A stretch of 64,000 nt of DNA from a virus. This document shows positions 1 to 17,722 of the stretch, in pieces. The position numbers were made by a program, and so were the translations under genes. The notes below the pieces were generated by a model. It did not search any database, was not told where the DNA came from, and saw nothing but the letters and a program-made list of their open reading frames with translations. Location of the stretch: the IMG/VR virus record IMGVR_UViG_3300032782_000006, positions 1 through 64,000 of that record; one strand, 5' to 3'. Numbering within the stretch: the stretch's first letter is position 1; each line of letters begins with the position of its first letter.

Positions 1-3000
1 AATCCCCGGCCAAGAGGTAACATTCCAGTAGCTCCTCTAAACGTTCCTCCAAACGATCCAAGACCACCGAACGAACCCATCCCGCCACCGAATGGATGAG
101 CTGTATGGAATGGAGACGCTATTCTACCACCAAAATGACCCCCACCACGTTCCCCATGATGCATTCCTGCAAGTAGTCCTGTGAGAGGGGAAAACTCAAA
201 TCCTCTTCCTCTCCCCCCCATTCCAACCATTCCCATTCCACCGAGGCCAAGCATTCCCAGCATGGAATAGAGACCAATTGGATCTAGCATTCCGCCAAGT
301 GAGCTTAATCCTAGTCCTCCAAACCCACCGTATCCCATTCCACCGCCGAGACCTCCGATTCCACCCATCCAGCCTCCTCCGCCGAATGGGCCGAATCCGC
401 CTAGTATACCATGGAATCCGAACCCGCTGACATCTCTTGCACCGCCTGGTTTGCCTAACAGATCTTTTAGATCTCCTCCTCCTTTTCCATGAGTTGCGGG
501 ACCTCGACCTGCTGCAGTTCTACCATCTCTTCCTTCTTTTTCACGTTCTGCCCGATCTCCTCTACCGTGACCTATTTCTCCTCTTCCTCTACCTCTTCCG
601 CCTTCTCTACCTCCTCTCTCTTCTCTGCCGTGCCAATGTTCTCTTCCCCTATCATGATCTCTTCCCCATCTTCCTCTTCCATGACCCCAGCCCCATCTCC
701 CCCTGCCGAATCCAAACATTCCAAATCCGCCTAGACCCATCAACCCCATTCCCCCACCGAGCAACATCTGGGCTAAGCTAACGATTCCCATCCCACCAAG
801 CAAACTCAATCCCATGAGTCCGCCCATCATACCTCCCATTCCTAGGAGTCCGAGCGGTCCCATCATTCCGCCAAATCCGAATCCTCCTCGTCCCCATCCA
901 AAGCCCATTCCATGTCTAAACATGTCATGACCTTCATGTCTCCCATGTTCTCTTCCACCTTCGTGTTCTCCCCCCCTTCCGTGACCTCTCCTACCTCCAT
1001 GATGATGTCTTCCCCATCTCCCCCATCTTCCCCATCCTCCAAGCCCCATCATCAAAGCTAAGAGACCTCCCATACCGCCAAACATCCCCATGCCGCCAAG
1101 ACCCATCATTCCGAGTCCGCCAAGTCCCATCATCCCAAATCCGAGACCTCCCATCAATCCAAGAGGTCCCAGCAATCCTCCCATCATGCCGAATGGACTA
1201 AACATTCCCCATCCTCTACCGTGATGATGATGTCCAAATCCATGCCTGCCATGAAGTCCACCCATACCCATTAGTAATCCGAGAGGCCCCAACATCCCTC
1301 CCATCATACCTAATCCGCCTAAACCACCGAGCAACCCTCCGAGACCCATCATCCCGCCTAAGAATCCTGGGAATCCCCATCTCCCGTGACCGAATCCGTG
1401 ACCTCCTCTCCCATGACCTTCGTGCCCGCGGCCATGTTCTCCATGTTCCCCGCCACCGCCTTCTCTTCCATGATGCCCACGGCGACCTCCATGATGTCTC
1501 CCGTGGTGATGTCTACCCCATCCAAACCCGAATCCACCGAGACCCATAAGTAATGGGAGCAGTCCCATCATACCCATTCCGAGGCCTCCCATCATGCCAA
1601 GAGGCCCTAATAGTCCTCCCATTAATCCTAATGGACCTAGCATACCTCCTAAGAATCCTGGGAATCCAAAACCGTGGTGATGATGATGATGTCCTCTATG
1701 TCCTCCTTCTCCGCCTCTACCATGTTCTCCTCTTTCTCTCCCCCCTCCTCTGCCGTGATGGCCGCCTCTACCGTGGTGATGCCTACCGAAATGATGCCAC
1801 CATCTCCCAAATCCTCCTAGACCCATGAGTAACGGTAGCAGACCCATCATACCCATTCCGAGGCCTCCCATCATGCCAAGAGGTCCTAATAGTCCTCCCA
1901 TCAATCCGAGTGGTCCCATCATACCCATTAATCCTAATGGGCCAAACATTCCTCCCATAAAGCCAGGGAATCCCCATCTCCCATGTCCGAATCCATGTTC
2001 GCCTCTCCCGTGACCTTCGTGTCCACGTCCACCGCGACCATGTTCTCCACCTCTTCCATGTTCCCCTCCATGTTCCCCTCCGTGTTCTCCTCCACCACGA
2101 CCTCCCATTCTGCCATGTTCTCCGTGGAATTCGCGACCAAATCTACCGTGTTCGCGTCCTCCTCGGTGTCTTCCTCCATGACGTTCATGACCTCCAAAAA
2201 TATCAGAGAATAATCTATGTAACCCTGGGATCCCTCCGAACATCCCAAGTCCACCTAACCCTCCAAGACCCAGTATGCCTAATAATCCAAGACCTCCAAG
2301 GCCTAAAGATCCCATCATTCCAAGAGGACCAAATCCTAGGCCAAGTACACCACCCCATCCACCTCTTCCATGTTCTCCTCGTTCCCCTCTTCCATGCCCT
2401 CCTCTCATACCTCCGCGATGTTCTCCTCCGCGTCCTCCCCCTTCTCCCCTGCCGTGATCTCCTCTTCCATGAGTAGCTCGGCCACCTTCATGACCCCCTC
2501 TACCTCCTCTTCCATGCCCTTCATGTCCATGGTGGTGACCATGATGGTGTCTTCCCCATCCGAATCTACCTAGGCCTAGGAGTAATGGTAATAATCCCAT
2601 CATACCTATGCCGCCCATCCCTAATAGGCCAAGAGGTCCAAGGAGACCGCCCATCATTCCGAAAGGCCCAAATAATCCTGGGAATCCAAAAACGTGATGA
2701 TGATGATGATGTCTCCCTCCCATACCTCCGTGATGTCCACCGTGTCCTTCATGACCTCCACGTCCTTCTCTTCCGCCGTGTCCTTCATGACCTCCGCCGT
2801 GACCTTCGTGTCCTCCTCTTCCCCCTCGGCCTCTTCCACCATGCATATGATGATGATGATGGAACTCACGCCCGAATCCGCCAAACAATCCTGGGAATCC
2901 GAATAATCCTCCCATGCCTCCAAGACCTAGGAGTCCAAGAGGTCCCATCATGCCAAGACCTCCCATCAACCCTAGTTCTTCAAGACCTAGAAGTCCAGGG

Positions 3001-5600
3001 AATCCTCCCCATCCGTGACCAAAGTGGTGTCTTCCTCCGTGTCCGCCACCGTGTCCTCCTCTTCCATGTCCTTCATGACCTCCTCTCCCGTGACCACCGT
3101 GTCCGCCTCTTCCGTGTCCTCCGTGATGATGTCTACCGAATAAATGACCTAATCTTCCTCGGCCAAATCCGAGTAACCCTAATCCAGGGAACCCTAACCC
3201 AAACCCACCTAGGCCTAACAACATTCCAAGTAGACCTAATCCTCCAAACTCTCCAAATTCTCCTCTTCCATGATGGTGTCTTCTATGATGTCTACCATGC
3301 CCTCTTCCATGTCCTTCGTGTCCTCCCCCATGACCTCTTCCGTGCCCACTTTCTCCACCTTCTCTTCCGTGTCCACTACCGCCGCCTCCTTCCCCTCCTT
3401 GTCCTTGCCCTCCACCTTCTCCGCCAGGTCCTCCTTGACCTCCTCCTGGCCCTCCTTCTCCACCAGGTCCACCTTGGCCGCCACCGGGACCTCCCATTTC
3501 TCCCCCTGGACCTCCACCCATACCGCCGCCTTCTCCGCCAGGCATTCCTCCACCCATACCTCCCATATCCCCTCCAGGTGCACCGCCTCCCATACCTCCG
3601 CCTCCATCTCCACCGGGCATACCTCCGCCCATACCACCCATATCTCCGCCAGGAGCTCCTCCCATTCCTCCTGACATGTCTCCACCGCCGCCCATACCTC
3701 CGGCTCCGCCCCCTCCAATTCCTTGATCCATCCCGCCGCCCATACCACCTTGTCCGCCTCCTTGTCCACCTTCTCCTCCTTGGCCTCCTCCACCGTGTCC
3801 TCCTTCCATTCCACCATGACCGCCTCTCCCATGCCCTCTATGTCCTCTGTGGCCGCCTCTCCCGTGTCCTCTGTGGTGTCTTCTATGATGAGGGAACCAG
3901 GGCAAAAACTCGTCATCAAGATCTCCGAATAAACCGAGTGGACCTAGTAAACCTCCCATCATTCCGAATGAACCTAGTCCTCCGTGTCCCCAACCTCTAC
4001 CGAATCCGAATGGGCCCCAATGTCCTCTACCACCAAATCCACCTCTACCCCTTCCTCCAAATCCTCCTCTTCCGTGTCCTCCTCTCCCGTGGCCTCCACC
4101 GTGCCTTCCTCTTCCCCATCCAAATCCACCGTGCCCGAATCCTCTTCCCCATCTGCCAAATCCTCCAAATCCGCGACCCCATCCTCCGAGACCCCAGAGT
4201 CCTCCCCCTCCCATCATCATAAGAAGTCCTAATAATCCTAGACCTCCTATGCCTCCTCCTGGTCCGCCTACATCGTCTCCATCATCGTCATCATCATCGT
4301 CATCGTCCCCCCCTCGACCATGTTTCCGACCTTTTTTGCCGTGTTTGCCACCTTTACCATGACCTCCTTGTCCTCCTCCTCCACCTTCTCCGCCAGGTCC
4401 TCCTTGACCTCCTCCTGGCCCTCCTTCTCCACCAGGTCCACCTTGGTCGCCACCGGGACCTCCCATTTCTCCCCCTGGTCCTCCTCCTCCAGGGCCACCC
4501 ATGTCTCCTCCTCCACCCATACCGCCCATATCTCCGCCTCCATCTCCACCAGGCATACCTCCGCCCATATCTCCACCTGGAGTTCCCCCCATATCTCCTC
4601 CACCGCCCATATCGCCCATATCTCCACCGGCTCCGCCTCCCATACCTGGATCCATGCCTCCGCCCATGCCTTGATCCATTCCACCACCCATTCCTCCTTG
4701 ATCCTGACCTCCGCCGCCGCCTCCCTGACCGCCTTGGCCTTGACCTTGATCCTGACCTCCGCTACCTCCTTGCCCGCCTCCACTTTTACCGCCTTGGCCT
4801 CCACCGTGTTTATGATGTTTCTTATGTTTTTTGTGGTGATGATGATGTTTTCTGTGGTGCCTGAATGGATCCCATTCGTCATCTAGATCTTCAAACATCC
4901 CCAACGGTCCTAGAAGACCTCCCATCATACCGAATGGCCCAAATCCGCCAAATCTACCTCTCTCAAACCCTCTTCCAAATCCGAATGGTCCCCATCCGCC
5001 TCTTCCACCTCTACCTCTACCACCAAATCTACCTCCAAATCCACCTCTGCCGTGCCCTCCTCTGCCGAATCCCCCTCTTCCTCCAAAGCCACCTCTACCA
5101 AATCCGAATCCTCTTCCTCCAAATCCTCTACCCCATCTTCCTAACCCTCCAAATCCACGACCCCAACCGCCGAGACCCCACATTCCAGGTAAAAATCCGA
5201 ATCGACCTCTACCCCTCATCATCATGAGAAGGGCTAGGAGACCAAGACCGCCTAATCCTGGACCAGGTCCCTGATCGTCTTCGTCTCCGTCATCATCGTC
5301 GTCTCCTCTTTTACCGTGCTTCCCTCTCTTTTTCTTTTTACTGCCTTTTCCACCACTGCCACTCTGATCTCCGCCCCCTCCTCCTCTTCCAGATCCTCCA
5401 CCACCGCTACCGCTACCATCATCTCCGCTACCACTTCCATCTCCTCCTGATCCATCGTCTCCTGGACCGCCTTGGCCTCCCCCCATTCCAGCGCCCATAT
5501 CTCCTGGACCACCGCTCATATCTCCTCCGGAGCCATCGCCCCCCTTGTCTCCTCCTGATCCATCGGGAGGTGCATCTCCCCAACCGTTATCTAAATCATT
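1..5600 (-). repeat. Gly-rich low-complexity coding region with internal duplications
   Basis: The + strand is extremely C-rich. Near-identical copies occur at ~3410-3510 and ~4380-4478, and similar copies at ~1540-1620 and ~1820-1900. Confidence 0.9.
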
Positions 5601-8600
5601 AGATCCAGTCCAAGCAGTACCTTCTGCTCCAGATCCATCAGATCCTGCGTCTGGAGATCCCCCTCCGCTACCATCAGGATTTTCATAAGTATCTGGAGAA
5701 GATTGAGACTCTGGCGGTTGATCTTGTAATTGTCCTTGCTCGTTACGATATCCACCGTTGTATGCTTGATCTTCGGGAGTATCAGCAGTGTACCCGGCAG
5801 CCCCTTCTCCAGTATCTCCAGCATTGTTCCCTAACTCATCTTGACCATACTGTTGTTGCTGCAACTGTTGCTGTAACTTCTGTTTTTGTTGTTTTTGCTT
5901 TTGCTGTTTCTGTTGGCGTGGCTTCTTTTGCTTCCTCTGTTTTCTTTGTCCACCACCACGACTTCTACTGCCTCTACCTGCGCCACTACCTCCTTTCCCA
6001 CTTCCACTACTACCTCTTTTATGTCTTCCCTTCTTCCCCTTCTTCCCCTTCTTTCCTAGATTGCCAAACATGCCACCTAGGTTACATTTTCCGCTAGCCA
6101 TGAGGTTTCTAGCCATTAACATACCTAATGGACCCATCCTCATTAGCATCAAAATTTGGAATAGACACATCATCCCCCCTAGAGGACTACCAGATCCGAC
6201 TCCAGTCTTTTTAGAACCGGCTAATTTGCCACCTGACCCGTCATCTCCTCCACTGCCACCACTACCACCGGTGCCACCTCCGCGACCACGACCACTTCTT
6301 CCGCTACCACCGCCCCCGCCTCCAGATCCAGTATCTCCTCCATATCCATCGTCTTCATATCCAGACCCGTCATCACCATAACCACTGTATCCTGATCCAT
6401 CATCACCATAGTTAGATCCATAACCAGAGCCATCATCTCCGTATCCACCACTGCCGTAGCCAGATCCATCATCATAAGATCCGGTATCTTGAGACTCTAC
6501 GTTTTCATAAGACTGATCTGGTGGAGTAGATTGAGTTCCAGCTTCTTGATCTGAATTGTCTTCATCAGTTCCAGTTTGAGATGATCCAGAACCACCGCTA
6601 CCAGAACTTCTACCTCCACTTCCACCAGATTCTTCAGAGGAAGAAGCCGCATGTGATGCAGCACTCGCTTTGTCTTTATAAGACTGGCAAGCTTTATCAT
6701 TCGCAGCACAAGTCTTGTTACATGAAGATTCGCAACTGCTAGCACAAGATTTATCCGATTGAGAACATCTGTTGTTACATTTTTCAGCAGTACTTGCTTT
6801 TTTCTCGTAAGATTCTATGACTTTATTGTTTGCATCTACTACAGACTTCCCAGAATCAGACGCTTTTTTGTTAGCATCTTCTGTAGCTTTCCCAACTTTA
6901 TTCTCATTTTCAATAATTTTGCTAGTGGTAGACGAGTTTGACGATAAAATAGTCCCATTATGGGTTTTCACAGTTTCAGTAATCTTGTTGTAAGCGGTAT
7001 TGACTCCGTTACTTACCTCGTTCCACTGTTTTTGAGACGTTTTTGCAAACTGATCATGAGTTTTGTTGATTTCATCTAATTGTTTTTTAGCAGAATCAGA
7101 AACTGCACCCACTACTTGAGAAGACATCTGTTTTTTAGAATTAAGAATATGACCGTCCGTAGTTTTAACATCGGAGACCATCTTCTCATTTGAAACCTTG
7201 AATCCGTTTACTACTTCATCCCAAGTAGTTTTTGCTACTCGTTTTACATCTCCAAGCTCGTTTTTATAATTTTCAATTAAAGTTTTAGCATCAGATGGAA
7301 CCCCTTCAGTAGCACCTTTTGGAGCTTCCTGACCCCCAGTTCTAGATCCATATCCAAACTGGTATTGATCTCTAAAACCAGATGGTCCTTGTTGGTACCT
7401 ACCAGAATCATAGCCTGTAGAGTACCCAGACCCTATTCCAGTACCTCTATATCCACGTCCACCATACCCTACATTATCGAAATAGTTTCCATCTTGATCA
7501 ATTTCGTTGCCTTGATCATCGTAATATTTTCCGTCGGTTCCACGATATGGGGTTCCGTGATATCTTTGCCCTCTTCCTCCCCATCCATCACCTGCGCCTG
7601 TACTTCCCCAATCTCCCATTCTTCTTCGATGTTTTCTGGAACCACTGCCTCCAGCTGGCATCCATTTCCCAGTTTTGGAATAATGGCCTCCATAATCTTG
7701 ATCTTGAAGATCTTTTATATTCGTGATTTGACCATATTTATTATAATGAGGGTAGGGGTCATCAGATTTTCTGAAATTTGGATTGATACTTCCATCTGGA
7801 AGATACTGGTTTTCTGCAATCCATTCATTGTATTCCTGATTATCTCTATCTAGACCAGAATCTTTTTTACTTCCTTTATGATGAGAAGGAGGCAACCCAT
7901 GTTCTCTTAAATCTTGATCACCATATGGATCCCAAGGACTTTTTGTGGGAGAATAATGAGTCCATTTCCCTGTCTTTAGATTTTGGTGCCATCCTTTTTT
8001 ATCAGCCCCCATCTCTACAGGGCCATATGGAGTTTCATGATGCCCTTTTCCCTTAGAAGTAGGGACTTTGGCACCGTGTTGTCTATAATAATCTTCATTA
8101 ATTCCAGACGAATACTCAGACGAAACTTGTTTTGGAAGTTTATGTTCATTACCGTATTTATCACGGTAATACATCTCTCCATCAGCACCAACATAAGCAT
8201 GAGCAGCATGTTCCGCACTGGCTTGACCGGCGTGATGTCTCCCCCCTCCTCCTCCTCTTCCAGGATGTTCCTTCTCAAGTTGTGCTATTTGGTCGGGAGT
8301 CATCCCGATTTTGGATAATAAACTTTCATCATATCCAGATTTGGTAAATGGTGATTTCGGAATTGTAGCTCCATGCCAATCCCCAGTACCAGATTTTCCC
8401 ATTAACTCACGAGTATATGGATTATATGCATATTGTTTGCTATGCCCTCCGCCTTTATGCCCCTGATGTAAATTCTTTTTATTTTGTTCCGCGATCATGC
8501 GGTTGATTTCACTTGCTGGAACCCCTGCCTCCTGCAATTCTTTTACATTATAGCCAGTAGGATCATTGGGGTCATATTCAATATTTGCTCCAGTCCAACC

Positions 8601-11600
8601 GCCATCTTTTTTAGATTTGACTAGTTTATGTGCCCCTTTATCCCATCTATAATTAGCATGACCTTTTTCACCATCCCCTCCTTTCCATGCAGGTACTGTA
8701 CTCCAATCTATATCTTCAGTAGTTTGTGCCTCTCCTGGTTTTCGAGGTGGTGGGGCTTTAATCCCTTTTCCTCCACCGCCACTAGTTCCGCCTGCTGATA
8801 ATCCTGCAGTATGGATAGATGGTGATTCTCCAGATGGGGGTGTTACCCCTGTAGTTCCATATCCTGAGAGGTCTATTTTTGGGACTAAGCTAATATCTCC
8901 AACTGAAATCGGTGGGGAAGTAGTAGTCGGAGCTGGAGTAGTTGGAGCTGAGGTAGTTGTAGTTGTAGGTGTGGATCCAGGCGTTGGCGATACTGATCCA
9001 GTGTACCCTGATTTTTCTAGCTCTTGCATTTTTGCAAGATTCATAGCGTTTCTAATTTTTGGATCAGTTTTTTCAAGAGTAGCTGCAGAAGTGTTATCTA
9101 TACCAGAAGAAGAAACTGATTTGGGTTTAACATCATTTACAAAATTGCCTGAAGCTAACCCTTTAGAATAATTATCAGCCCATTCTACTTGTTTATCCAA
9201 CTGTTTATTCCGCTCTAAAGCAGCTTCATAATTCTTTTTTGCACCTTTTTGAGCATCGGTAAGTTCTGAATCTGGTTTAAGCGCAAATGAGTAGTCTGGA
9301 AGATTGTATTCTTTTTTATAATAATCTAAAGCATCTCCTCGACTTTTACCATATGTAGGACTGACTCCTTGAGCTTTTTTCACTATATCATCATGGGATT
9401 GATATTTACCTGGTGTGATGAGCCCCTTCCCATACAATTCATCCGAACTTAAAGCCTGAGCTCCGCCTCCAGACCCTCCTAACTTTTCTTTAAGGAACCC
9501 CGTGATTTTATCGAGTGCTCCTCCTCCGCCTCCACCACTGGTGGGAGCTGCAGTTGTTCCACCTGCTCCTGGTGTAGTAGCTCCCCCGCCTCCGCCTCCT
9601 CCTAATCCTGCGAGTGACTGTACTGAAGATTTGATTTCTCCTACTTTAGTATCTACTTGAGATTTGAGAGTCGATAACGCAGATGCAACTTTCCCAGGGA
9701 GACTGTTTAATGCTTCGATTAGTTTGTTGACGTAATCAATAATTTTGTTGATTTCTTCGCCTATCTTTTGTGCTAAACCATTAAAGAAATTTTTGACATT
9801 AGTAACAAATGTAGACGCTGCTTTTTGTGCTCCATCCCATGCTTCCCCAAATTTTTGAGCAACTTGAACTACACTCTCTTTTAAATGAGTCCAAACTTCG
9901 TCTAAATCATTTTTAGCAGTCTGGATTCCACCAACTAATGTAGTTTTAAACCCATTGACAATTTGTTCCCATAACGCTGTAACTTTATCTACAAGGTTTG
10001 TTTGGATAGATTCTCTAATCTCATTCCAAACTGTATTGAGAGTGTTCTTCGCATTTTGGATACCGGTTACCAGTTTAGTTTTAAATTCAGAAACTACAGT
10101 TTCCCATGCAGAAGACAACTTTGTTTTTAGAGTGTTAGCTTCAGTAACTAACGAATCCCATATCCCATGTAATTTTTCAGATGCCGCGTTCTTTAAGTTT
10201 GTGACAAACGTTTTAGCTGTGGAAACTACTTCATTAAATCTAGACTCTAATTTTGTTTTTAAGTTCCCTGCTTCAGTAACTATATAATCCCATAACCCTG
10301 TTACTTTCCCAACCGCTGCATCTTTCAGTCTAGACCCAAACTCTTTTACAGTATTTACAATCTCGTTAAATTTGGTAGTTAAACTTGTCTTTAAAGAATC
10401 AGCGTCTTTTGTCAACTGTTCTTTCAGTTTTTCAAAATAATCTATCTTTTGGTCTCCACCAGTAGACGCAGATGCTTTTGGCATCAAATCCGGCATAGAC
10501 GGGACCAATTTTTTAAGGGTATCTCCAAGTGAAATTCCAGAAATTTCTTTTTTAATAGATGCAAATGCGGTTCTCAACTTGTCCGGGATACCTTCAATAT
10601 ATTTGATCCCTTTATCTAACTCCCCAGGTAATTTTTCAAAATCTTTTTTAAGATCTGATAACGCAGTTTTGGTTTCTGGAGAATTCAATACTTTTTGTAA
10701 CCCTTCAAAAGCAGTTTTTAGTAACCCAAAATGTCCTGCAAGTGCTATAGCTCCTACAACAATAGCGCCGCCTGGACCTAAAAATACGGCTAATGCGCCT
10801 AGAGCTGTTGCAGCTAATCCTAGTTGAATAGCCCATTGTTGAGTTGGGTCATCTAATTTTTTGAAATAATCTGCCAACTTTTCTAGGTCTTTCATTAAAG
10901 GTTCAAGAGCAGGAACTACTTGTTTCCCAATAATGTCGGCTACTGAATGCATGTTGGCAAGAAACTTATCCATCCTGCCAGGATCGCTATCCATCACTTT
11001 GTTATATGCAGTATCTAAAGCCTGAGGATTTCCTTCTATTTTTTGTCGAAGTTGGGCAAGTCCTTGTTGACCTATACCTATTTTAGGATCTACCAAACCT
11101 ATAGCTGCACGTTCGTCAACTAAGCCGAACATGTCTTTATAATTAAAAGTTTTATCTTTATTTTCAGGTCTCCCCATCACATTTTGCATGTAACCGATGG
11201 CGCCTTCAAACCCTTGAGGATTCTCAGCTGGATCTACATATTTTGGATCCATTCCAAACCGTTTCATTTCATTCAAGGCAGGCTTAGGAGGTTCATGCAT
11301 TCTTGCATATATCCCTCGTACAAACCTCGCTCCTTGTTTTCCCCGTATACCTAACTTGGATTCCGCTGCGGTTACCGCTGCTTGAGTGCCTATTGGGATC
11401 CCTAATTGCCGTGCAACTAATGCTTGCTCGGCCATTGCATCTTCAGTCTCACTCGGAACTCCTGATCCTTCAATATTGGTAGCATATACCAAATTAAACA
11501 TTTTTTCAGAATTTTCCGCATTTACTGGTAAACCCAATGCCCCAAACATCCCTACATGTTTATTGATCAATTTACTTGCGTCTGGATGTTCTGGACTTGC

Positions 11601-13853
11601 TTTCACAAACTTATTTGCAGATTTTACCATCCCTGGAACTTCGCTTGGTGGTACATTTGCCATCAATGCACCGCCTTGCGTTTGGGCGGAATATTCTGGA
11701 GTCATCCCATAATTTGGGGCTTCGTATAAATTGATCCTTTCAAATTCTGCTTCTTGTTCTGGAGTGAGGTTTGCTGCTGCAGCACCTTGTTTTTCCACAC
11801 GTTTCATTTTTAACCAATCTTCAACTCCGACCCCTTCAACTATTCCTGCTGCAAGAGTCGGCATTAAAGCATGATGGGTAAGGTATCTCCCAAATTGTCT
11901 TGCTCCCCCACTCTCAAATAAAGAGCTAGCTCCTACATCTCCTTCCGTTTCAGCGATTGCTGCCTGAGATGGAGTAATCTCTTTACCCCTATATTGTGTT
12001 GTAGGAACTTTCGCGCCCTTTGTTGTTATATATCCTGCTGCTGCTCCTTCAGCATTGGCAAAAGAGGGACTTCCGGCCGAGGATTCAAGTTCGGATTCTG
12101 TTCCTCTACCCCCTGCTGCAGCCATTGGACTAGTTACATTGATCTCAGCCATTGCTGCATTAAACGCACTGGCATATGCTGCTCCAGCTTCCGCTCCTTT
12201 TGCAGATGCAATTTCAGTCCCAGATTCTAAACTAGTTTCTAAAGAAGCAGAAAACTCTGATCCAAAACCCATTGATTCTAGAAGACTAGTTTTAAAAGAT
12301 TGACCTATAGTTGTAAACCGAGCTCCGAGTTCGGCTTCTGCTCCTTCTAATCCAGAAGAAATCCCTGCCACCATTTCTTTACCGATATCGGCCATTGAGG
12401 CAGTTAAGGTAGTACCAATAGCCTCTCCAATACCAGTAAACTTTGCAACAATCTCAGATTCTGCGCTATCTAACCCAGCAGTAATCGATCCTATAATCTC
12501 TTTACCGACACCAGATAATCCTTCAGATAAACTAGTTCCAATTGCTGTTGCTATTCCACTAAACTTCCCTGCGATCTCAGATTCTGCACCCTCCAATCCA
12601 CTAGTGATAGCCCCTACCATTTCTGGGCCAACATGATACAAAGAATTAATTAACTCTGTACTTATTGCATCTCCTATAGTTTCAAACTTGGCTACAATCT
12701 CAGATTTGGCTCCTTCGACCCCTTCGGCGATTGTAAACGCCATCGTTTCACCGGTTTCAGCTAACGACGTTGTAAGTGATTCTTTGATTGCTGCTCCGAT
12801 CCCACTAAACTTTTCTACAATTTCTGTTTCAGCACCAGATAGTCCAGAGGTGACCTCTGCAACCATTTCAGTTCCAGTGTCCGATAATCCAGTTGTTAAC
12901 GCAGATTTTATTTCAGAATCTATTCCTTCAAACGCGGCTGCAATTTCGGTTTTAGCATCGGCAAGACCACTGGTAATCTCAGTTACCATTTCTTTTCCGA
13001 TATCGGATAACCCTGAAGTCAACTCAGTTTTGATTTCAGTATCTATACCTTCAAACGCGGCTGCAATTTCAGTTTTGGCTTCAGATAACCCAGATGTGAT
13101 CTCAGTTATCATCTCTTGACCAATATCAGCCAACCCTTCTTTTAACTGAGTAGTAATTTCAGCATCGGTTCCCTCAAATTGTGCAGCTATCTCAGTTTTG
13201 GCTTCAGATAATCCACTAGTGATTTCGGAAACCATCTCTTCTCCAACATCAGCTAATCCCTCTTTTAACTGAGTAGAGATTTCAGTTCCGACTCCTTCAA
13301 ATTCAGCAACGATTTCAGATTTAGCTTCGGTAAGACCGCCAGTAATTTCACTGACCATCTCTTCACCGGTCTCAGCTAACCCTTCTTTTAACTGAGTAGA
13401 AATTTCAGTTCCAACACCTTCAAACTCAGCAACAATTTCAGATTTAGCTTCGGTCAACCCTGAAGTGATCTCGCTGACCATTTCTTGACCAGCACCAGAT
13501 AACCCTTCCGTTAGCTGACTAGAAATTTCAGTTCCTATTCCTTCAAAAGTAGAAATGATTTCGGTTTTAACTCCCTGTAACTCAGTATCTAGAGTAGTCC
13601 CGATTTTTTCCCCCACACCAGAAAAAGATGAAGTAAGTTCTTCAGACGCTTCTTTCCCAAACTCTTCAAACTTTAATTTGGCAGAATCTAGAGCAGTTGT
13701 TAACGAAGTAGAGAAACTTTCCCCTACTTCTCTCATTTTGGTCTCGATACTCTCAAGAGATGCGTTAATTTTTTCAGTGTCTTCCGGTATCGTACTTTTT
13801 AGGCCTACGGTAGCGTATATACCGCCTACAAACTGCCCTTCTTCTCCTGCCAT
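1..13853 (-). CDS. Giant tail tape measure protein (>4617 aa, C-terminus outside window) with large low-complexity C-terminal extension
   Basis: ATG at 13853 (MAGEEGQFVGGIYATVGL). The same frame is still open at position 3 (..GATGMLPLGRG), and the ORF track lists no closed ORF in this frame. It has 40-aa helical repeats, a TMP-core-like segment (~11900-10800) and Trp-spaced repeats, and lies directly after the tail chaperones. Confidence 0.9.
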   Translation of the reverse strand, partial: MAGEEGQFVGGIYATVGLKSTIPEDTEKINASLESIETKMREVGESFSTSLTTALDSAKLKFEEFGKEASEELTSSFSGVGEKIGTTLDTELQGVKTEIISTFEGIGTEISSQLTEGLSGAGQEMVSEITSGLTEAKSEIVAEFEGVGTEISTQLKEGLAETGEEMVSEITGGLTEAKSEIVAEFEGVGTEISTQLKEGLADVGEEMVSEITSGLSEAKTEIAAQFEGTDAEITTQLKEGLADIGQEMITEITSGLSEAKTEIAAAFEGIDTEIKTELTSGLSDIGKEMVTEITSGLADAKTEIAAAFEGIDSEIKSALTTGLSDTGTEMVAEVTSGLSGAETEIVEKFSGIGAAIKESLTTSLAETGETMAFTIAEGVEGAKSEIVAKFETIGDAISTELINSLYHVGPEMVGAITSGLEGAESEIAGKFSGIATAIGTSLSEGLSGVGKEIIGSITAGLDSAESEIVAKFTGIGEAIGTTLTASMADIGKEMVAGISSGLEGAEAELGARFTTIGQSFKTSLLESMGFGSEFSASLETSLESGTEIASAKGAEAGAAYASAFNAAMAEINVTSPMAAAGGRGTESELESSAGSPSFANAEGAAAGYITTKGAKVPTTQYRGKEITPSQAAIAETEGDVGASSLFESGGARQFGRYLTHHALMPTLAAGIVEGVGVEDWLKMKRVEKQGAAAANLTPEQEAEFERINLYEAPNYGMTPEYSAQTQGGALMANVPPSEVPGMVKSANKFVKASPEHPDASKLINKHVGMFGALGLPVNAENSEKMFNLVYATNIEGSGVPSETEDAMAEQALVARQLGIPIGTQAAVTAAESKLGIRGKQGARFVRGIYARMHEPPKPALNEMKRFGMDPKYVDPAENPQGFEGAIGYMQNVMGRPENKDKTFNYKDMFGLVDERAAIGLVDPKIGIGQQGLAQLRQKIEGNPQALDTAYNKVMDSDPGRMDKFLANMHSVADIIGKQVVPALEPLMKDLEKLADYFKKLDDPTQQWAIQLGLAATALGALAVFLGPGGAIVVGAIALAGHFGLLKTAFEGLQKVLNSPETKTALSDLKKDFEKLPGELDKGIKYIEGIPDKLRTAFASIKKEISGISLGDTLKKLVPSMPDLMPKASASTGGDQKIDYFEKLKEQLTKDADSLKTSLTTKFNEIVNTVKEFGSRLKDAAVGKVTGLWDYIVTEAGNLKTKLESRFNEVVSTAKTFVTNLKNAASEKLHGIWDSLVTEANTLKTKLSSAWETVVSEFKTKLVTGIQNAKNTLNTVWNEIRESIQTNLVDKVTALWEQIVNGFKTTLVGGIQTAKNDLDEVWTHLKESVVQVAQKFGEAWDGAQKAASTFVTNVKNFFNGLAQKIGEEINKIIDYVNKLIEALNSLPGKVASALSTLKSQVDTKVGEIKSSVQSLAGLGGGGGGGATTPGAGGTTAAPTSGGGGGGALDKITGFLKEKLGGSGGGAQALSSDELYGKGLITPGKYQSHDDIVKKAQGVSPTYGKSRGDALDYYKKEYNLPDYSFALKPDSELTDAQKGAKKNYEAALERNKQLDKQVEWADNYSKGLASGNFVNDVKPKSVSSSGIDNTSAATLEKTDPKIRNAMNLAKMQELEKSGYTGSVSPTPGSTPTTTTTSAPTTPAPTTTSPPISVGDISLVPKIDLSGYGTTGVTPPSGESPSIHTAGLSAGGTSGGGGKGIKAPPPRKPGEAQTTEDIDWSTVPAWKGGDGEKGHANYRWDKGAHKLVKSKKDGGWTGANIEYDPNDPTGYNVKELQEAGVPASEINRMIAEQNKKNLHQGHKGGGHSKQYAYNPYTRELMGKSGTGDWHGATIPKSPFTKSGYDESLLSKIGMTPDQIAQLEKEHPGRGGGGGRHHAGQASAEHAAHAYVGADGEMYYRDKYGNEHKLPKQVSSEYSSGINEDYYRQHGAKVPTSKGKGHHETPYGPVEMGADKKGWHQNLKTGKWTHYSPTKSPWDPYGDQDLREHGLPPSHHKGSKKDSGLDRDNQEYNEWIAENQYLPDGSINPNFRKSDDPYPHYNKYGQITNIKDLQDQDYGGHYSKTGKWMPAGGSGSRKHRRRMGDWGSTGAGDGWGGRGQRYHGTPYRGTDGKYYDDQGNEIDQDGNYFDNVGYGGRGYRGTGIGSGYSTGYDSGRYQQGPSGFRDQYQFGYGSRTGGQEAPKGATEGVPSDAKTLIENYKNELGDVKRVAKTTWDEVVNGFKVSNEKMVSDVKTTDGHILNSKKQMSSQVVGAVSDSAKKQLDEINKTHDQFAKTSQKQWNEVSNGVNTAYNKITETVKTHNGTILSSNSSTTSKIIENENKVGKATEDANKKASDSGKSVVDANNKVIESYEKKASTAEKCNNRCSQSDKSCASSCESSCNKTCAANDKACQSYKDKASAASHAASSSEESGGSGGRSSGSGGSGSSQTGTDEDNSDQEAGTQSTPPDQSYENVESQDTGSYDDGSGYGSGGYGDDGSGYGSNYGDDGSGYSGYGDDGSGYEDDGYGGDTGSGGGGGGSGRSGRGRGGGTGGSGGSGGDDGSGGKLAGSKKTGVGSGSPLGGMMCLFQILMLMRMGPLGMLMARNLMASGKCNLGGMFGNLGKKGKKGKKGRHKRGSSGSGKGGSGAGRGSRSRGGGQRKQRKQKKPRQQKQQKQKQQKQKLQQQLQQQQYGQDELGNNAGDTGEGAAGYTADTPEDQAYNGGYRNEQGQLQDQPPESQSSPDTYENPDGSGGGSPDAGSDGSGAEGTAWTGSNDLDNGWGDAPPDGSGGDKGGDGSGGDMSGGPGDMGAGMGGGQGGPGDDGSGGDGSGSGDDGSGSGGGGSGRGGGGGDQSGSGGKGSKKKKRGKHGKRGDDDDDGDEDDQGPGPGLGGLGLLALLMMMRGRGRFGFLPGMWGLGGWGRGFGGLGRWGRGFGGRGFGFGRGGFGGRGGFGRGGHGRGGFGGRFGGRGRGGRGGWGPFGFGRGFERGRFGGFGPFGMMGGLLGPLGMFEDLDDEWDPFRHHRKHHHHHKKHKKHHKHGGGQGGKSGGGQGGSGGQDQGQGQGGQGGGGGGQDQGGMGGGMDQGMGGGMDPGMGGGAGGDMGDMGGGGDMGGTPGGDMGGGMPGGDGGGDMGGMGGGGDMGGPGGGGPGGEMGGPGGDQGGPGGEGGPGGGQGGPGGEGGGGGQGGHGKGGKHGKKGRKHGRGGDDDDDDDDDGDDVGGPGGGIGGLGLLGLLMMMGGGGLWGLGGWGRGFGGFGRWGRGFGHGGFGWGRGRHGGGHGRGGHGRGGFGGRGRGGFGGRGHWGPFGFGRGWGHGGLGSFGMMGGLLGPLGLFGDLDDEFLPWFPHHRRHHRGHGRGGHRGHRGHGRGGHGGMEGGHGGGGQGGEGGQGGGQGGMGGGMDQGIGGGGAGGMGGGGDMSGGMGGAPGGDMGGMGGGMPGGDGGGGMGGGAPGGDMGGMGGGMPGGEGGGMGGGPGGEMGGPGGGQGGPGGEGGPGGGQGGPGGEGGGQGQGGEGGGGSGHGREGGESGHGRGHGGGHEGHGRGHGRHHRRHHHGRGEFGEFGGLGLLGMLLGLGGFGLGFPGLGLLGFGRGRLGHLFGRHHHGGHGRGGHGGHGRGGHEGHGRGGHGGGHGGRHHFGHGWGGFPGLLGLEELGLMGGLGMMGPLGLLGLGGMGGLFGFPGLFGGFGREFHHHHHMHGGRGRGGRGGHEGHGGGHEGHGGREGRGGHEGHGGHHGGMGGRHHHHHHVFGFPGLFGPFGMMGGLLGPLGLLGMGGIGMMGLLPLLLGLGRFGWGRHHHGHHHGHEGHGRGGRGGHEGGRATHGRGDHGRGEGGGRGGEHRGGMRGGHGRGERGEHGRGGWGGVLGLGFGPLGMMGSLGLGGLGLLGILGLGGLGGLGMFGGIPGLHRLFSDIFGGHERHGGRHRGGREHGRFGREFHGEHGRMGGRGGGEHGGEHGGEHGRGGEHGRGGRGHEGHGRGEHGFGHGRWGFPGFMGGMFGPLGLMGMMGPLGLMGGLLGPLGMMGGLGMGMMGLLPLLMGLGGFGRWWHHFGRHHHGRGGHHGRGGGRERGEHGRGGEGGHRGHHHHHHGFGFPGFLGGMLGPLGLMGGLLGPLGMMGGLGMGMMGLLPLLMGLGGFGFGWGRHHHGRHHGGRRGHHGREGGGGEHGEHGRGHEGHGRGGHGFGHGRWGFPGFLGGMMGLGGLLGGLGGLGMMGGMLGPLGLLMGMGGLHGRHGFGHHHHGRGWGMFSPFGMMGGLLGPLGLMGGLGFGMMGLGGLGMMGLGGMGMFGGMGGLLALMMGLGGWGRWGRWGRHHHGGRRGHGRGGEHEGGREHGRHEGHDMFRHGMGFGWGRGGFGFGGMMGPLGLLGMGGMMGGLMGLSLLGGMGIVSLAQMLLGGGMGLMGLGGFGMFGFGRGRWGWGHGRGRWGRDHDRGREHWHGREERGGREGGRGRGRGEIGHGRGDRAEREKEGRDGRTAAGRGPATHGKGGGDLKDLLGKPGGARDVSGFGFHGILGGFGPFGGGGWMGGIGGLGGGMGYGGFGGLGLSSLGGMLDPIGLYSMLGMLGLGGMGMVGMGGRGRGFEFSPLTGLLAGMHHGERGGGHFGGRIASPFHTAHPFGGGMGSFGGLGSFGGTFRGATGMLPLGRG
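12300..13560 (-). repeat. About ten 120-bp (40-aa) tape-measure repeats
   Basis: The unit FEGVGTEISTQLKEGLAETGEEMVSEITGGLTEAKSEIVAE recurs every 120 nt. Confidence 0.9.
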
Positions 13854-13868
13854 CGTTTTTACCATCCA

Positions 13869-14192
13869 TTATGGATTTGGTTGATTTTGATTTATATCTA
13901 CTACTTGCCCCCCTAATGCTTGATTTGCTGCCATCACTTCAGCCCATATTTGGTCAACTGTTCTTTTCTTTGGTTTTGGTATCATAGATTCCGGCAAGAA
14001 ATCTTCAATATCATACCCATGATCTGAATTCCGTTTTGTGACCCCATGGACATTACATATTAATGCAAGAAGTTGGGCTTGGCGATAAACCTTGACTTCT
14101 TCTCGTTTCATTGCTGCTGTTATCATGATCTCCGTTTCTGCCGGAGTATACTTCCAAAACTCGATAGGATCGATTTCGCAGAACCGAAACAT
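13869..14192 (-). CDS. Tail assembly chaperone, T segment (probably reached by -1 frameshift)
   Basis: IDPIEFWKYTPAE motif and position between the G chaperone and the TMP. The frame is open back to 14318. Confidence 0.8.
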   Translation of the reverse strand: MFRFCEIDPIEFWKYTPAETEIMITAAMKREEVKVYRQAQLLALICNVHGVTKRNSDHGYDIEDFLPESMIPKPKKRTVDQIWAEVMAANQALGGQVVDINQNQPNP

Positions 14193-14212
14193 GTTTCGCT
14201 GTGCGTTTTCGA

Positions 14213-14641
14213 TCAGTTCTTTGACGGTTTGCGGCTTCTTGATTTGGTCGGAGTCTTCACTATTTCCACTTCCTCCTCCTCCTCCTCCTCCTCCTCCATA
14301 TCCTGAACTTCCCCCGTATCATCCCCCTGATAGTCTTGAGGTGCCGAAATGATTCCAGAAGCAAGCAATGCTTTGCCAACAACATCTGATAATTCAGCTA
14401 TGGAATGTCCTTCTAGATACCCATCCATAATCTGGAACATATCTTGATCAGTCAGATTAGGGAATTTGTGAAGAAGTCCAGCCCACAAAATTTTTCTTAA
14501 GTGTTTAGGTCCAATCTCTGAAATTATTCTGTCGAAATCTGAGAAAGCTGGGGTATCCAATGCATCTGTCAAAGCCTCTAACCCACCCCATCCATACCGG
14601 AGTGTGTAGTCTCCATAAAACTTTACTTCTTTTGAAACCAT
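14213..14641 (-). CDS. Tail assembly chaperone G
   Basis: Position after the tail tube gene, LRKILWAGLLH motif and acidic tail. Start moved to ATG 14641, behind the conserved leader. Confidence 0.8.
   Translation of the reverse strand: MVSKEVKFYGDYTLRYGWGGLEALTDALDTPAFSDFDRIISEIGPKHLRKILWAGLLHKFPNLTDQDMFQIMDGYLEGHSIAELSDVVGKALLASGIISAPQDYQGDDTGEVQDMEEEEEEEEEVEIVKTPTKSRSRKPSKN
14309..14315 (-). other. Programmed -1 frameshift slippery site G GGG GAA
   Basis: The heptamer is correctly phased in G. The -1 frame opens just before it (TGA at 14321-14319) and stays open into T. Confidence 0.8.
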
Positions 14642-14807
14642 GTGGTACAATCTCCATTTTTTAAGTCTTATATTTGGTTTTCAGACACCAGTTTTTTCTA
14701 ATGTCTGTCAACCAAAGTATAAGTGCTTCTGTTATTTAATTACGATGTAGAGACATTATCCGTTTTTTTGCAGAAGCAAGCGTTTTTCATAACTCAAACT
14801 ATAGCCA

Positions 14808-15659
14808 TCAGGTTAGGGAGTACATACTGAAATAATATATGGCGGGAGAATATGTCGCACATGATATCATTACAGCCAAGTTGACTACACTTGATGTAGC
14901 GAGTACTAAAGCAGTCTGTGGCAAAACTGGAGTGGATCCTGAGTTCAAGGTAGCTGTATAGGGGCTTGAAGATCCAGTAAATGCAACGGTCAACGAGTTA
15001 TTAACTACACCTGTCTGATTAGTAAATAAAGAACAGGTGACCGTAAGAGTACAGTTCGGTACAGTTGAGCTGGCAACTATAGAGGTAATAGGATGTGTTC
15101 CTCCTCCAGCCGCGAATGTAGCAACATACGTTCCACCGCTTGTAGTTCCAGTAGTTAGGGCTGGAATCGTAGTCGCAACTGGTGTGAACACAATTGGTGT
15201 TGCAGCCATTGGGACTACAAGGGTAGACAATGTTGGAGGTCCAGTGATTTTTACAACTGCAGTGAACTGAATCAAATCTTTTTTGACTTCAGTTGTAAAT
15301 GATTTCAACAGACCGTAGTAAGACCAGCTAGCACCGTTCGGGAATAGGATGGTATACAAGTTGATAGTCTGGTTGATAGATGCATTGTAAAGAGCCTGTT
15401 GACCTGGATCTGTGGCAACATAGTTCCCGGTCATTGTTGCATCTCTACCGTTTCTTCGACCAGGTTTCCATTCTTTATAGATACCGGAATCCTGGTTGGT
15501 AACATCGATTTCGGCAGTGTCCATCAAAGGAACTGGGACTCCAGTATCTTCAACTTCTGCAATATGTGTGCCGTCTATCGATATTAAAATGTTCTTTGCA
15601 ACAGTCGCCTGACTGCCTGCATAGGTGGATATTAACCCACCAAACTGATTTGTAGCCAT
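14808..15659 (-). CDS. Major tail tube protein with C-terminal Thr-rich beta extension
   Basis: EIDVTNQDSGIYKEWKPGRR..GNYVATDPGQQAL..YTILFPNG is a siphovirus tube pattern. Confidence 0.85.
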   Translation of the reverse strand: MATNQFGGLISTYAGSQATVAKNILISIDGTHIAEVEDTGVPVPLMDTAEIDVTNQDSGIYKEWKPGRRNGRDATMTGNYVATDPGQQALYNASINQTINLYTILFPNGASWSYYGLLKSFTTEVKKDLIQFTAVVKITGPPTLSTLVVPMAATPIVFTPVATTIPALTTGTTSGGTYVATFAAGGGTHPITSIVASSTVPNCTLTVTCSLFTNQTGVVNNSLTVAFTGSSSPYTATLNSGSTPVLPQTALVLATSSVVNLAVMISCATYSPAIYYFSMYSLT

Positions 15660-17393: not shown

Positions 17394-17722
17394 ACCATAA
17401 CTTTCAGGTATCCTCCATCTGAAGGGAAGGTAGTCTGTGCAGAATCTTGCATGACTAAAAACTGACCACTAAACTGACCTGGCACACTAGTATGAGTGGG
17501 ATCAAACGGAATTGTTATTCCTCCATCTTTAGCTTTGACATCGTTACCATCTGGAGTAGTAGCGTCTTTGGTGCATGGAATCGAGTACAACACTCCGGCT
17601 GAATTGTTCATCACAAATGTAATATCCGCATCTGCTAAGTTAGCACCTACATCCTGAGCTTTTAGAATCACTGCTATATCATTTGTGTCCCCCTGATTTA
17701 AATTTATGTCATAAGTTGTCAT
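17375..17722 (-). CDS. BppU N-terminal-like Ig-fold anchor protein
   Basis: LNQGDT..LADADITFVM..HTSVPGQFSGQF..TFPSDGGYLKV pattern. Confidence 0.65.
   Translation of the reverse strand: MTTYDINLNQGDTNDIAVILKAQDVGANLADADITFVMNNSAGVLYSIPCTKDATTPDGNDVKAKDGGITIPFDPTHTSVPGQFSGQFLVMQDSAQTTFPSDGGYLKVMVWESLS

Follow-up and report, generated by a model that had tools for sequence, protein, structure and literature searches.

A predicted tape measure protein of a probably archaeal virus has its glycine-rich zone expanded to ~2,200 residues of alternating hydrophobic and charged blocks

We describe a predicted viral tape measure protein (TMP) in which the Gly-rich zone has been expanded to ~2,200 residues by duplication and then kept by purifying selection. 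The resulting low-complexity insert (about residues 2401-4610; 216 kDa per chain) is translated, ancient and under purifying selection at the protein level. Its novelty lies in its scale and its chemistry, both of which are without precedent.

The window analysed is a stretch of 64,000 nucleotides, positions 1 to 64,000 of the IMG/VR record IMGVR_UViG_3300032782_000006. The TMP open reading frame (3..13865, minus strand) encodes 4,621 aa inside the window and stays open all the way from 13865 to the start of the window. The first and last 127 bp of the 77,567-bp contig are identical, and when the ends are joined at this overlap the frame runs on for 159 codons to a stop, giving a total of 4,780 aa (~486 kDa); the contig extension proposed in the earlier note thus finds the stop across the terminal overlap. 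IMG/VR rates the record 100% complete and lists it as one with direct terminal repeats. The virus genome is circularly assembled (77.4 kb) and its TMP gene, which takes up ~18% of the 77-kb genome, is complete and intact. Over bases 3-6665, the TMP frame contains 0 stops in 2,221 codons, where ~120 are expected from the base composition (P ~1e-52 for the open frame), and the other five frames contain 22-113. From 1854 to 14000, the sequence is reproduced with zero differences by an independent k=31 assembly of the source run, a single 9.8-kb contig of which bridges the 5.6-7 kb junction singled out in the earlier note; neither a misassembly nor a stop was found there. Identical pieces also occur in the run of a second study (1564-1845 and 3218-3368), while bases 1-1563 lie outside the independent assembly cover, which counts against the explanation favoured below. 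The high GC content of bases 1-6000 (55%) is due to codon positions 1 and 2, so that the codon usage is native; a foreign origin of this stretch was rejected (GC3 0.32 vs 0.26 upstream).

By its sequence matches and gene position, the protein is a TMP, as the earlier note had claimed, and of the siphovirus tail type. Annotated TMPs in 312 phage records were matched by tblastn at only 21-25% identity and only over the core. The gene order (tube, G/T-type chaperone pair, TMP, tail-fibre genes) is that of a canonical siphovirus tail module. A frame check showed that the second chaperone frame lies at -1 to the first, whose end it overlaps as an open frame for 103 nt; the TMP starts 4 nt past the chaperone stop codon, and a fibre protein of 1,674 aa with beta-helix/disaggregatase domains starts 49 nt past the TMP stop. 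The virus is probably archaeal, with PF08480 matching only Methanosarcina acetivorans among 14 control genomes. Because of the disaggregatase-related domains, the host is most likely a Methanosarcina-type methanogen from a wetland. The features of the tail module are as follows.

14808..15659, minus strand: major tail (tube) protein (Phage_TTP_12, E 1e-6; phrog_158 major tail protein, E 1e-14)
13869..14650 (14213-14650 + 13869-14192), minus strand: tail assembly chaperone pair, directly upstream of the TMP (Phage_tail_T, E 7e-5; phrog_2115 tail protein, E 1.5e-11)
3..13865, minus strand: TMP gene, residues 1-4621 of 4780 (open reading frame list, translation, circular join, PHROG matches, tblastn)
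12186..13568, minus strand: N-terminal helical ruler, residues ~100-560, ~12 tandem 41-aa (123-nt) repeats (TRF arrays with a 123-nt period, repeat anchors at a spacing of 41 residues, apolipoprotein-like helical-repeat matches)
9186..11798, minus strand: conserved TMP core, residues ~690-1560 (eleven PHROG TMP families: phrog_1272, the best, E 7e-36 over residues 717-1416, and ten further)
10734-10847, minus strand: classical hydrophobic segment, residues 1007-1044 (KD19 2.19)
6666..9185, minus strand: middle region, residues 1561-2400 (composition, Cys positions)
5289..6665, minus strand: zone A of the insert, residues 2401-2859 (block map)
3249..5288, minus strand: zone B, residues 2860-3539, two ~325-aa super-repeats (block map, copy alignment)
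213..3248, minus strand: zone C, residues 3540-4551, eleven units (block map, aromatic edges, Gly spacing, dN/dS, AF2)
3..212, minus strand: transition to the C-terminal domain, residues 4552-4621 (translation)
Contig 76963-77440 (= L001:12963-13440), outside the window: last 159 codons and stop, across the 127-bp terminal overlap
L001:12966-13274, outside the window: predicted helical C-terminal domain, residues ~4678-4776 (AF2 helices)

The layout is canonical, i.e., a ruler with tandem repeats, a core with one hydrophobic segment, a Gly-rich zone and a short C-terminal domain that is predicted to be helical and would sit in the tail tip. The middle region consists of Gly/Thr/Pro linkers, a part rich in Lys/His/Tyr/Gly/Asp, a second helical stretch and a 7-Cys ladder (residues 2363-2393; window 6687-6779), and no Pfam or PHROG match was found in residues 1561-2400. 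The last ~170 residues of the protein are Ser/Ala/Asn-rich, with zero His and one Lys/Arg; AF2 gives helices at residues 4678-4776 with pLDDT up to 95, and the C-terminal domain has no family match by sequence. Since this domain, confidently predicted as helical, comes after the blocks, the block region is an insert and not a terminal fusion. The earlier note had described a TMP fused to a block copolymer of >1800 aa, of which the shared open frame and the long low-complexity region stand, while the terminal position does not and the size is revised to ~2,200 aa.

The same gene position and part order (ruler, hydrophobic segment, Gly-rich or unstructured zone, helical C-terminal domain) are found in lambda gpH, T5 pb2, 80alpha and JBD30, where the short C-terminal domain is seated in the tail tip and whose TMPs are expelled at infection and implicated in a trans-envelope channel. 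In lambda gpH, a Gly-rich zone lies ahead of the C-terminal tip fragment gpHC; the protein is cleaved inside this zone after tail assembly, maturing to gpH*, which is protease-resistant in liposomes and modelled in the trans-envelope channel, and gpHC, and the piece that is cut off is retained in the tip. In JBD30, an unstructured zone of ~90 residues lies ahead of the C-terminal coiled coil, with cleavage proposed nearby, and in both JBD30 and T5 the C-terminal TMP domain is expelled first. On the other hand, the Gly-rich zone measures tens to ~90 residues in these phages and is ~20-fold enlarged here, its hydrophobic blocks being set between His/Arg, RGG/FG and acidic ones, and the host here is probably archaeal. 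The TMP of Thermus phage P23-45, 5,002 aa long, is fused to a cargo enzyme (virion RNA polymerase), and P23-45 and P74-26 resemble the present virus in genome size and in the giant length of the TMP, which shows that a TMP can take an extra functional part into the cell. However, the P23-45 TMP sets an extraordinarily long tail and its extra part is a folded N-terminal enzyme, whereas here it is low-complexity, non-enzymatic and near the C-terminus. The statement in the earlier note that the architecture has no precedent should therefore be narrowed to scale and chemistry, as the layout is known from lambda gpH and JBD30, P23-45 has a giant TMP with a fused enzyme, and short poly-Gly tracts are frequent in TMPs.

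Within the insert we mapped 15-16 uncharged Gly/Leu/Met/Phe/Pro blocks of 19-62 aa (residues 2554-4551), separated by His/Arg/Gly, RGG/FG, acidic Gly/Met/Asp/Pro/Gln, Lys/Gln-rich and poly-Asp blocks, which bears out the alternation of polar and hydrophobic segments described before. Zone A has acidic Gly/Ser/Asp/Tyr blocks; the hydrophobic blocks begin here with a Met/Leu one (2554-2575), and there is also a basic block rich in Lys/Arg/Gln. Each super-repeat of zone B runs from poly-Asp through a hydrophobic block and an RGG/FG/WG block (+11 to +17) to a hydrophobic FGMMGGLLGPLG block, and then through an acidic junction and a His/Lys/Arg cluster to ~150 aa of acidic Gly/Met/Asp/Pro/Gln sequence. 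In zone C, each unit is a His/Arg/Glu/Gly block (13-98 aa, 6-20 His) followed by an uncharged block (29-62 aa) with Phe/Trp-rich edges. The aromatic junctions noted earlier are thus confirmed: 17 of 30 Trp (6.4 expected, p 3e-5) and 47 of 87 Phe (18.6 expected, p 3e-11) are found at most 6 residues away from the edge of a block.

The internal duplicates testify to the age of the insert and to its maintenance. The two super-repeat copies of zone B are 73% identical in protein, yet pS is 0.70 vs a pN of 0.20. Across internal duplicates, pS is 0.65-0.70 vs a pN of 0.16-0.26, and dN/dS is 0.09-0.18, also between zone C units; synonymous divergence between copies is saturated. A nucleotide-only alignment of the duplicates gave mismatches of 0.18/0.14/0.46 at codon positions 1/2/3. 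Non-Gly residues are 54-78% identical between duplicates, about half of the identical ones being spelled with different codons, and the four copies of MMGGLLGPLG use four different codon strings. All TRF periods in the block region are multiples of 3, and the longest exact DNA repeat is 69 bp. The frame is under purifying selection. Searches of all the collections consulted returned no relative of the insert.

The Gly residues of the hydrophobic blocks (44% Gly, 5% Pro) are spaced i,i+3, with a periodicity of 3.0-3.3. GxxGxxG occurs 93 times (38.9 +/- 5.7 in shuffles), whereas GxxxGxxxG is depleted (12 vs 36.7 +/- 5.9) and the lag-4 Gly-Gly frequency is low (0.31 vs 0.43, z -4.9). At periods of 3.6 and 4.0 the Gly residues gave no signal, the power lying below that of shuffles, so that neither an amphipathic alpha-helix nor a GxxxG packing face is encoded. 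Like transmembrane glycine zippers, the blocks are uncharged Gly-rich segments bounded by aromatic and basic residues, but the spacing that defines zippers is the depleted one, and the glycine-zipper segments of the earlier note were rejected in favour of a GxxG rule. A collagen-like triple helix was also rejected, since the longest Gly-X-Y run is 13 triplets (shuffles: mean 8.3, max 14) and the register shifts every 3-7 triplets.

With regard to function, we tentatively favour, with a little less than even confidence, that in this TMP of a probable methanogen virus the insert blocks may build or line a passage across the S-layer gap and the membrane. The aromatic edges, together with a 19-residue hydropathy of 1.6-1.9 in several blocks, which comes close to the value for the classical hydrophobic segment of the same TMP, point to an interface-like design and were counted for a membrane reading. 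Against it stand summed translocon-scale insertion energies that are marginal to unfavourable (+1.4 to +7.8 kcal/mol per 19 residues), the lack of alpha-helical Gly periodicity, the fact that the searches gave no relatives in which to compare the conservation of the design, and the low confidence of the block helices in single-sequence AF2 (pLDDT only 50-66), which renders the His/Arg parts as coil.

The same Gly spacing would fit turn- or PPII-rich disorder, and the insert might instead be an elastomeric filler or spring, i.e., a disordered Gly-rich network that is packed or squeezed into the distal part of the tail lumen without inserting into a membrane; we consider this unlikely, although it is the strongest of the alternatives. 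Such a network would aid TMP expulsion or plug the tube, and would uncouple TMP length from tail length. Three solid-packed copies would, by calculation, need only ~62 nm of a 4-nm lumen vs ~330 nm if helical. In composition and in its alternating domains, the insert matches low-complexity proteins of the elastomeric or phase-separating type. It shares with tropoelastin and abductin the alternation of hydrophobic Gly-rich and charged domains, Gly/Met/Phe motifs (35 GGM and 17 GGF, akin to the abductin consensus GGFGGMGGGX, described as a random-coil compressible spring) and a random-coil character. However, these proteins are not homologous to the viral insert, which has Leu/Met in place of Val/Pro, His/Arg-rich charged blocks and neither Lys/Ala cross-linking domains nor other elastin- or abductin-type cross-linking residues. 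The particular non-Gly residues and aromatic edges kept between old duplicates go beyond the needs of a pure entropic spring, which also leaves the 163 His and the strict charge patterning unexplained.

Those His residues, with 35 GHG, 39 RGG and 68 FG motifs and a pI of 9.9 for the region, would suit a pH- or metal-switched, polyanion-binding coacervate that condenses on leaving the tail and coats the incoming DNA or sticks to anionic methanochondroitin or the S-layer, a possibility that takes up the condensate proposed in the earlier note and that we rate as improbable. Squid-beak His-rich proteins (GHGLY/GAGFA/GHGLH modules) self-coacervate on a pH rise, with hydrophobic linkers favouring gels, and peptides derived from them are used to deliver macromolecules into cells; in the JBD30 TMP, a putative ion on the axis of the tail is held by methionines. 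The insert resembles the beak proteins and RGG/FG domains in alternating Gly/His motifs with hydrophobic ones and in its abundance of RGG and FG, but the resemblance is compositional only. Its hydrophobic blocks are far longer (19-62 aa), zones B and C contain hardly any Tyr (2 residues), the key sticker of beak peptides, and no nucleic-acid-binding fold or family was detected.

Slightly more doubtful still is a segment needed only in tail assembly, e.g., for chaperone binding or initiator spacing, which would then be excised as in the maturation of gpH to gpH* and would contribute little to the mature virion. The cleavage of lambda gpH in its Gly-rich zone, the one proposed for JBD30 near the same zone and a papain-family protease gene in the same genome (40753-41535, minus strand) agree with it, but making and discarding 216 kDa per chain would be costly, lambda's cut fragment remains in the tip, and a pattern search of the TMP found no lambda-gpH-type junction or cleavage motif (GE.GPE / PAML, Gly-flanked). 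A gpH-like cleavage could strip the insert before the virion is finished, which was counted against the passage reading. Finally, a neutral runaway repeat expansion or an assembly artefact without a function of its own is strongly disfavoured and very improbable: low-complexity tracts are frequent in TMPs and scale with TMP length, bases 1-1563 are without independent contig support and relatives of the insert were not found, but dN/dS is ~0.1 at saturated synonymous divergence, the frame is open, DNA repeats are short, and independent contigs and a second study agree.

Returning to the passage across the envelope, ejection of the insert at infection, as suggested in the earlier note, is a fair inference because the TMPs of T5, lambda, JBD30 and the archaeal virus HFTV1, which jettisons its own, are ejected. 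Judging from other TMPs, three or six copies would occupy the tail lumen, their C-termini placed at the tip, and the insert would fill the tip-proximal lumen as a compact, non-helical chain. Once the tip has opened, the C-terminal domain and then the insert would exit first, so the insert probably leaves the tail first at infection. The 14-16 uncharged blocks, with their Phe/Trp caps and Arg/His flanks, would then partition into the archaeal membrane or self-associate, and the cationic His/Arg blocks would remain at polar interfaces. Overall, the insert would probably function as envelope- or membrane-active ejected chains, and the 42-96 blocks per virion may build or line a passage that starts at the tail tip, crosses both the S-layer gap and the membrane, and precedes the DNA.

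The minus-strand open frame of 4,621 aa that fills the first 13.9 kb of the window (3 to 13865 in the ORF list and its translation) overruns the window start. Comparison of the ends of the 77,567-bp record showed that its first 127 bp are identical to its last 127 bp, and in IMG/VR the record is listed under direct terminal repeats, with a completeness of 100%. Since this 127-bp overlap falls inside the tape measure protein (TMP) gene, it reflects circularisation of the assembly and no physical end. On the 77,440-bp circle, the frame gains 159 codons and the complete TMP comprises 4,780 aa (486 kDa); the stop, which the earlier note had proposed to seek by extending the contig, was located across the circular join at contig position 76963. 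None of the 2,221 codons in bases 3-6665 is a stop, compared with 22-113 stops in each of the other five frames and approximately 120 predicted from base composition.

The DNA derives from a wetland metagenome, for which the Logan k=31 contigs of the source run provide an independent assembly. These contigs showed 0 differences from bases 1854-14000, and the 5.6-7 kb junction, at which a stop or misassembly had been considered, is spanned by one 9,849-nt contig (4449-14000). Identical pieces were also found in a run of a second study (1564-1845 and 3218-3368), while independent Logan contig cover was lacking for bases 1-1563, which constitutes an evidence gap and not a contradiction. Besides, Tandem Repeats Finder (TRF) detected only short imperfect arrays in the region of the low-complexity insert, with periods that are all multiples of three, and the longest exact DNA repeat there is 69 bp, which excludes a DNA satellite.

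The TMP is organized into the following regions (residue numbers; minus strand):
~100-560: approximately twelve 41-aa helical repeats
690-1560: TMP core, which includes a classical hydrophobic segment (1007-1044)
1561-2400: middle region without family match, closing with a helical stretch and a ladder of seven Cys
2401-4610: low-complexity insert
4611-4780: Ser/Ala/Asn-rich C-terminal region

PHROG phage protein families of TMPs matched residues ~690-1560 (best E 7e-36), and the core could be aligned, at 21-25% identity, with TMPs annotated in 312 phage records; together with the gene order, these matches bear out the assignment as a TMP made in the earlier note. The neighbouring and other relevant genes are:
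upstream of the TMP, first of these genes: tail terminator
14808-15659: tube protein, upstream of the TMP and after the tail terminator
between the tube gene and the TMP: chaperone pair, the second frame being -1 and overlapping the first by 103 nt
contig 71890-76914 (7890-12914 of L001, the remainder of the record past the window), minus strand: right-handed beta-helix plus PF08480 (disaggregatase-related) protein, 1,674 aa, directly after the TMP
downstream of the TMP: 647-aa tail protein
33695-34834, minus strand: second beta-helix plus PF08480 protein
61165-61734, 62142-62759 and L001:3222-3986: ERCC4-type nuclease, short thymidylate-synthase-like protein and N6/N4 DNA methylase, in the replication/modification part
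40753-41535, minus strand: papain-family cysteine protease (Peptidase_C1, E 2e-17)
17719-24222, minus strand: very large ORF, 2,167 aa, between capsid and neck genes
24223-27909, minus strand: very large ORF, 1,228 aa, between capsid and neck genes

The virus carries PF08480 twice, and of 14 control genomes Methanosarcina acetivorans alone has it; the 1,674-aa protein is likely a methanochondroitin-degrading tail fibre. The ERCC4 nuclease fits an archaeal host. Based on the TMP matches, the tail gene order, PF08480 and ERCC4, we conclude that the gene encodes the TMP of a siphovirus-like virus, the host of which is probably a Methanosarcina-type methanogen. The papain-family protease is a candidate for attack on the S-layer or for the processing of virion proteins such as the TMP. 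A PDB sequence search with the two tail proteins downstream of the TMP gave no match, and neither of the two very large ORFs matched Pfam or PHROG. The chaperone overlap (14216-14318, minus strand) runs across GGA repeats, and a canonical XXXYYYZ heptamer was not seen in the last 100 nt.

The insert (216 kDa, pI 9.9) contains 163 His, 204 Lys+Arg and 174 Asp+Glu, and holds 15-16 uncharged hydrophobic blocks of 19-62 aa composed of 44% Gly, 23% Leu, 14% Met, 7% Phe and 5% Pro. These alternate with RGG/FG, His/Arg/Glu, long acidic Gly/Met/Asp/Pro/Gln, Lys/Gln-rich and poly-Asp blocks, and their edges are enriched in Trp (p 3e-5) and Phe (p 3e-11). The C-terminal region, on the other hand, has 0 His and a single Lys/Arg, and AF2 modelled long helices over its final ~100 residues, with pLDDT reaching 95. 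As this helical region lies beyond the insert, the insert is internal, and not a terminal tail fused to the TMP as had been described from the sequence. A three-copy complex prediction for the C-terminal helices scored 0.02, which carries no weight either way.

Ahead of the insert, residues ~1790-2190 (7300-8500, minus strand) are rich in Lys, His, Tyr, Gly, Asp and Trp and form loosely repeated modules of ~50 aa (e.g., ...GW.G..., YNPY and ...G.P.S endings); they have no family match and could represent a folded envelope-binding or enzymatic module. The seven Cys of residues 2363-2393 (6687-6779, minus strand; spacing 4,7,4,4,4,7, heptad a/d-like) end the last helical stretch immediately before the insert, and the only other Cys of the TMP are at residues 2567 and 2594. 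They could link the chains along the tail axis as a metal or disulfide ladder.

The insert was built from old duplications, i.e., two super-repeats of ~325 aa (residues ~2790-3130 and ~3115-3470) and eleven units of ~100 aa (residues 3540-4551). In a nucleotide-only alignment, mismatch rates between copies at codon positions 1/2/3 were 0.18/0.14/0.46, and Nei-Gojobori estimates gave a saturated pS of 0.65-0.70, a pN of 0.16-0.26 and dN/dS of ~0.09-0.18. Because Gly-Gly matches might inflate the selection signal, non-Gly positions were checked separately: identity between copies at these is 54-78%, and roughly half of the identical degenerate residues are spelled with different codons. The four copies of the motif MMGGLLGPLG have four different spellings. 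The insert frame is thus translated, and purifying selection acts on its protein. Its high GC sits in codon positions 1 and 2, and GC3 (0.32 vs 0.26 upstream) indicates native codon usage, ruling out foreign DNA as the origin of the high GC. C-ending codons are increased across the insert (3-6665, minus strand; His CAC 38% vs 10%, Phe TTC 48% vs 13%, Leu CTC 18% vs 6%), with Gly still GGA/GGT-rich; this shift may reflect selection for scrambled codons, limiting repeat slippage or recombination.

The glycine-zipper segments postulated in the earlier note are not borne out by the spacing of glycines in the blocks. Glycine pairs are over-represented at lag 3 (frequency 0.67 vs 0.43, z = 10) and under-represented at lag 4 (0.31, z = -4.9). 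GxxGxxG was counted 93 times where 38.9 were expected, GxxxGxxxG only 12 times where 36.7 were expected, and the glycine spectral power is highest at period 3.1, without any signal at 3.6 or 4.0. A collagen-like reading was also rejected, the longest uninterrupted (Gxx)n of 13 triplets being inside the shuffle range. Single-sequence AF2 rendered the blocks as 46-58-residue helices and the His/Arg parts as coil, a model of the blocks that we do not trust at a pLDDT of 50-66. Block hydropathy is marginal for membrane spans (19-residue KD maxima 1.0-1.9), with summed translocon-scale energies of +1.4 to +7.8 kcal/mol. The blocks are best described as uncharged, aromatic-capped segments of plastic conformation.

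No close relatives of the virus were found in the collections searched. The TMP core had no relative among proteins of 2,541-8,087 aa and, among shorter ones, only one distant bacterial-type TMP (P0002, E 4e-10). Searches of IMG/VR with the TMP core, tube, portal and capsid-module protein, of the metagenome collection with the TMP core, and of the genome collection with the disaggregatase-like protein revealed no related locus, and TerL found in IMG/VR only 38-53% relatives of GTA/HK97 type, without synteny value. For the insert, a phmmer search of 1.84 billion representatives with residues 3423-4621 yielded a single match, of 79 aa and spurious, the ESM Atlas yielded no usable match, and back-translated MMGGLLGPLG had 0 occurrences in the viral, metagenome and genome collections; the HMMER composition filter makes these negatives weaker than they appear. 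The C-terminal domain did not match longer proteins, and no comparable array of His/Arg-Gly and Gly/Leu/Met blocks was found among the TMPs, other proteins and papers searched, including literature on His-rich, Gly-rich or disordered TMPs.

The absence of precedent claimed in the earlier note holds for scale and chemistry, but not for giant TMPs or for the order of parts. P23-45 has a 5,002-aa TMP with a fused RNA polymerase. The TMP of lambda, gpH, is cleaved within a glycine-rich zone and its C-terminal fragment, gpHC, resides with gpI in the tip, while the TMPs of JBD30, T5 and 80alpha have an unstructured stretch followed by a C-terminal coiled coil in the baseplate. The order of ruler, Gly-rich zone and helical tip domain is shared with these proteins; unlike in them, the Gly-rich zone is here ~20-fold or more larger and of different chemistry. 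Of known TMPs, 95% contain short poly-Ala/Gly/Ser/Thr tracts, which average 6.6 aa.

By analogy with structurally studied siphoviruses and with HFTV1, an archaeal virus, the tail lumen would be filled by three or six TMP copies whose C-termini lie at the tip and which would be expelled at infection with that end leading, in which case the insert would lie nearest the tip, leave first and be located where the TMP first meets the host. Solid packing of the insert in a 4-nm lumen would occupy ~62 nm for 3 copies or ~125 nm for 6, against ~330 nm if helical, so that TMP length would be decoupled from tail length. As the best explanation, held tentatively and at somewhat below an even chance, we propose that the aromatic-capped hydrophobic blocks would enter the membrane or associate mutually, that the cationic blocks would remain at interfaces, and that both would jointly build or line a putative DNA passage. 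An elastomeric filler or spring, suggested by analogy with the alternating-domain layout of tropoelastin and by Gly/Met/Phe motifs reminiscent of abductin GGFGGMGGGX, is an unlikely alternative function. By analogy with squid-beak His-rich modules, the insert might instead be a pH- or metal-switched, polyanion-binding coacervate, which we consider quite improbable. Slightly more doubtful still is a segment required for assembly only and cleaved off afterwards as in gpH, for which the virus does encode a papain-family protease (40753-41535). A neutral expansion or artefact runs against the selection and assembly evidence and is very improbable.

We further hypothesize, as the boldest of the readings and on the whole a rather unlikely one, that the insert serves as a genome-delivery device of a new kind. 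Each particle would store an amphiphilic block copolymer of defined sequence, with a total of 42-96 hydrophobic blocks, which would be extruded at the tail tip and self-assemble, by membrane partition or pH/metal-switched condensation, into a DNA conduit across the S-layer gap and the methanogen ether-lipid membrane, without a folded pore-forming domain.

The insert is relevant to how tailed archaeal viruses cross an S-layer and an ether-lipid membrane, and the methanogens are hosts from which only a small number of viruses have been isolated to date. The insert takes up ~6.6 kb, or 8.5% of the virus genome, and is selected, orphan and block-patterned. If present in the virion, it would be a concrete, testable candidate for the penetration step and a natural sequence-defined amphiphilic protein polymer. 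It would also show that tail length does not have to follow from TMP length, a point that bears on the inference of morphology from metagenomes. Overall, the interest lies mainly in an intact, selected, orphan gene that, by analogy, would act where the virus first touches its host, in a virus-host system about which little is known.
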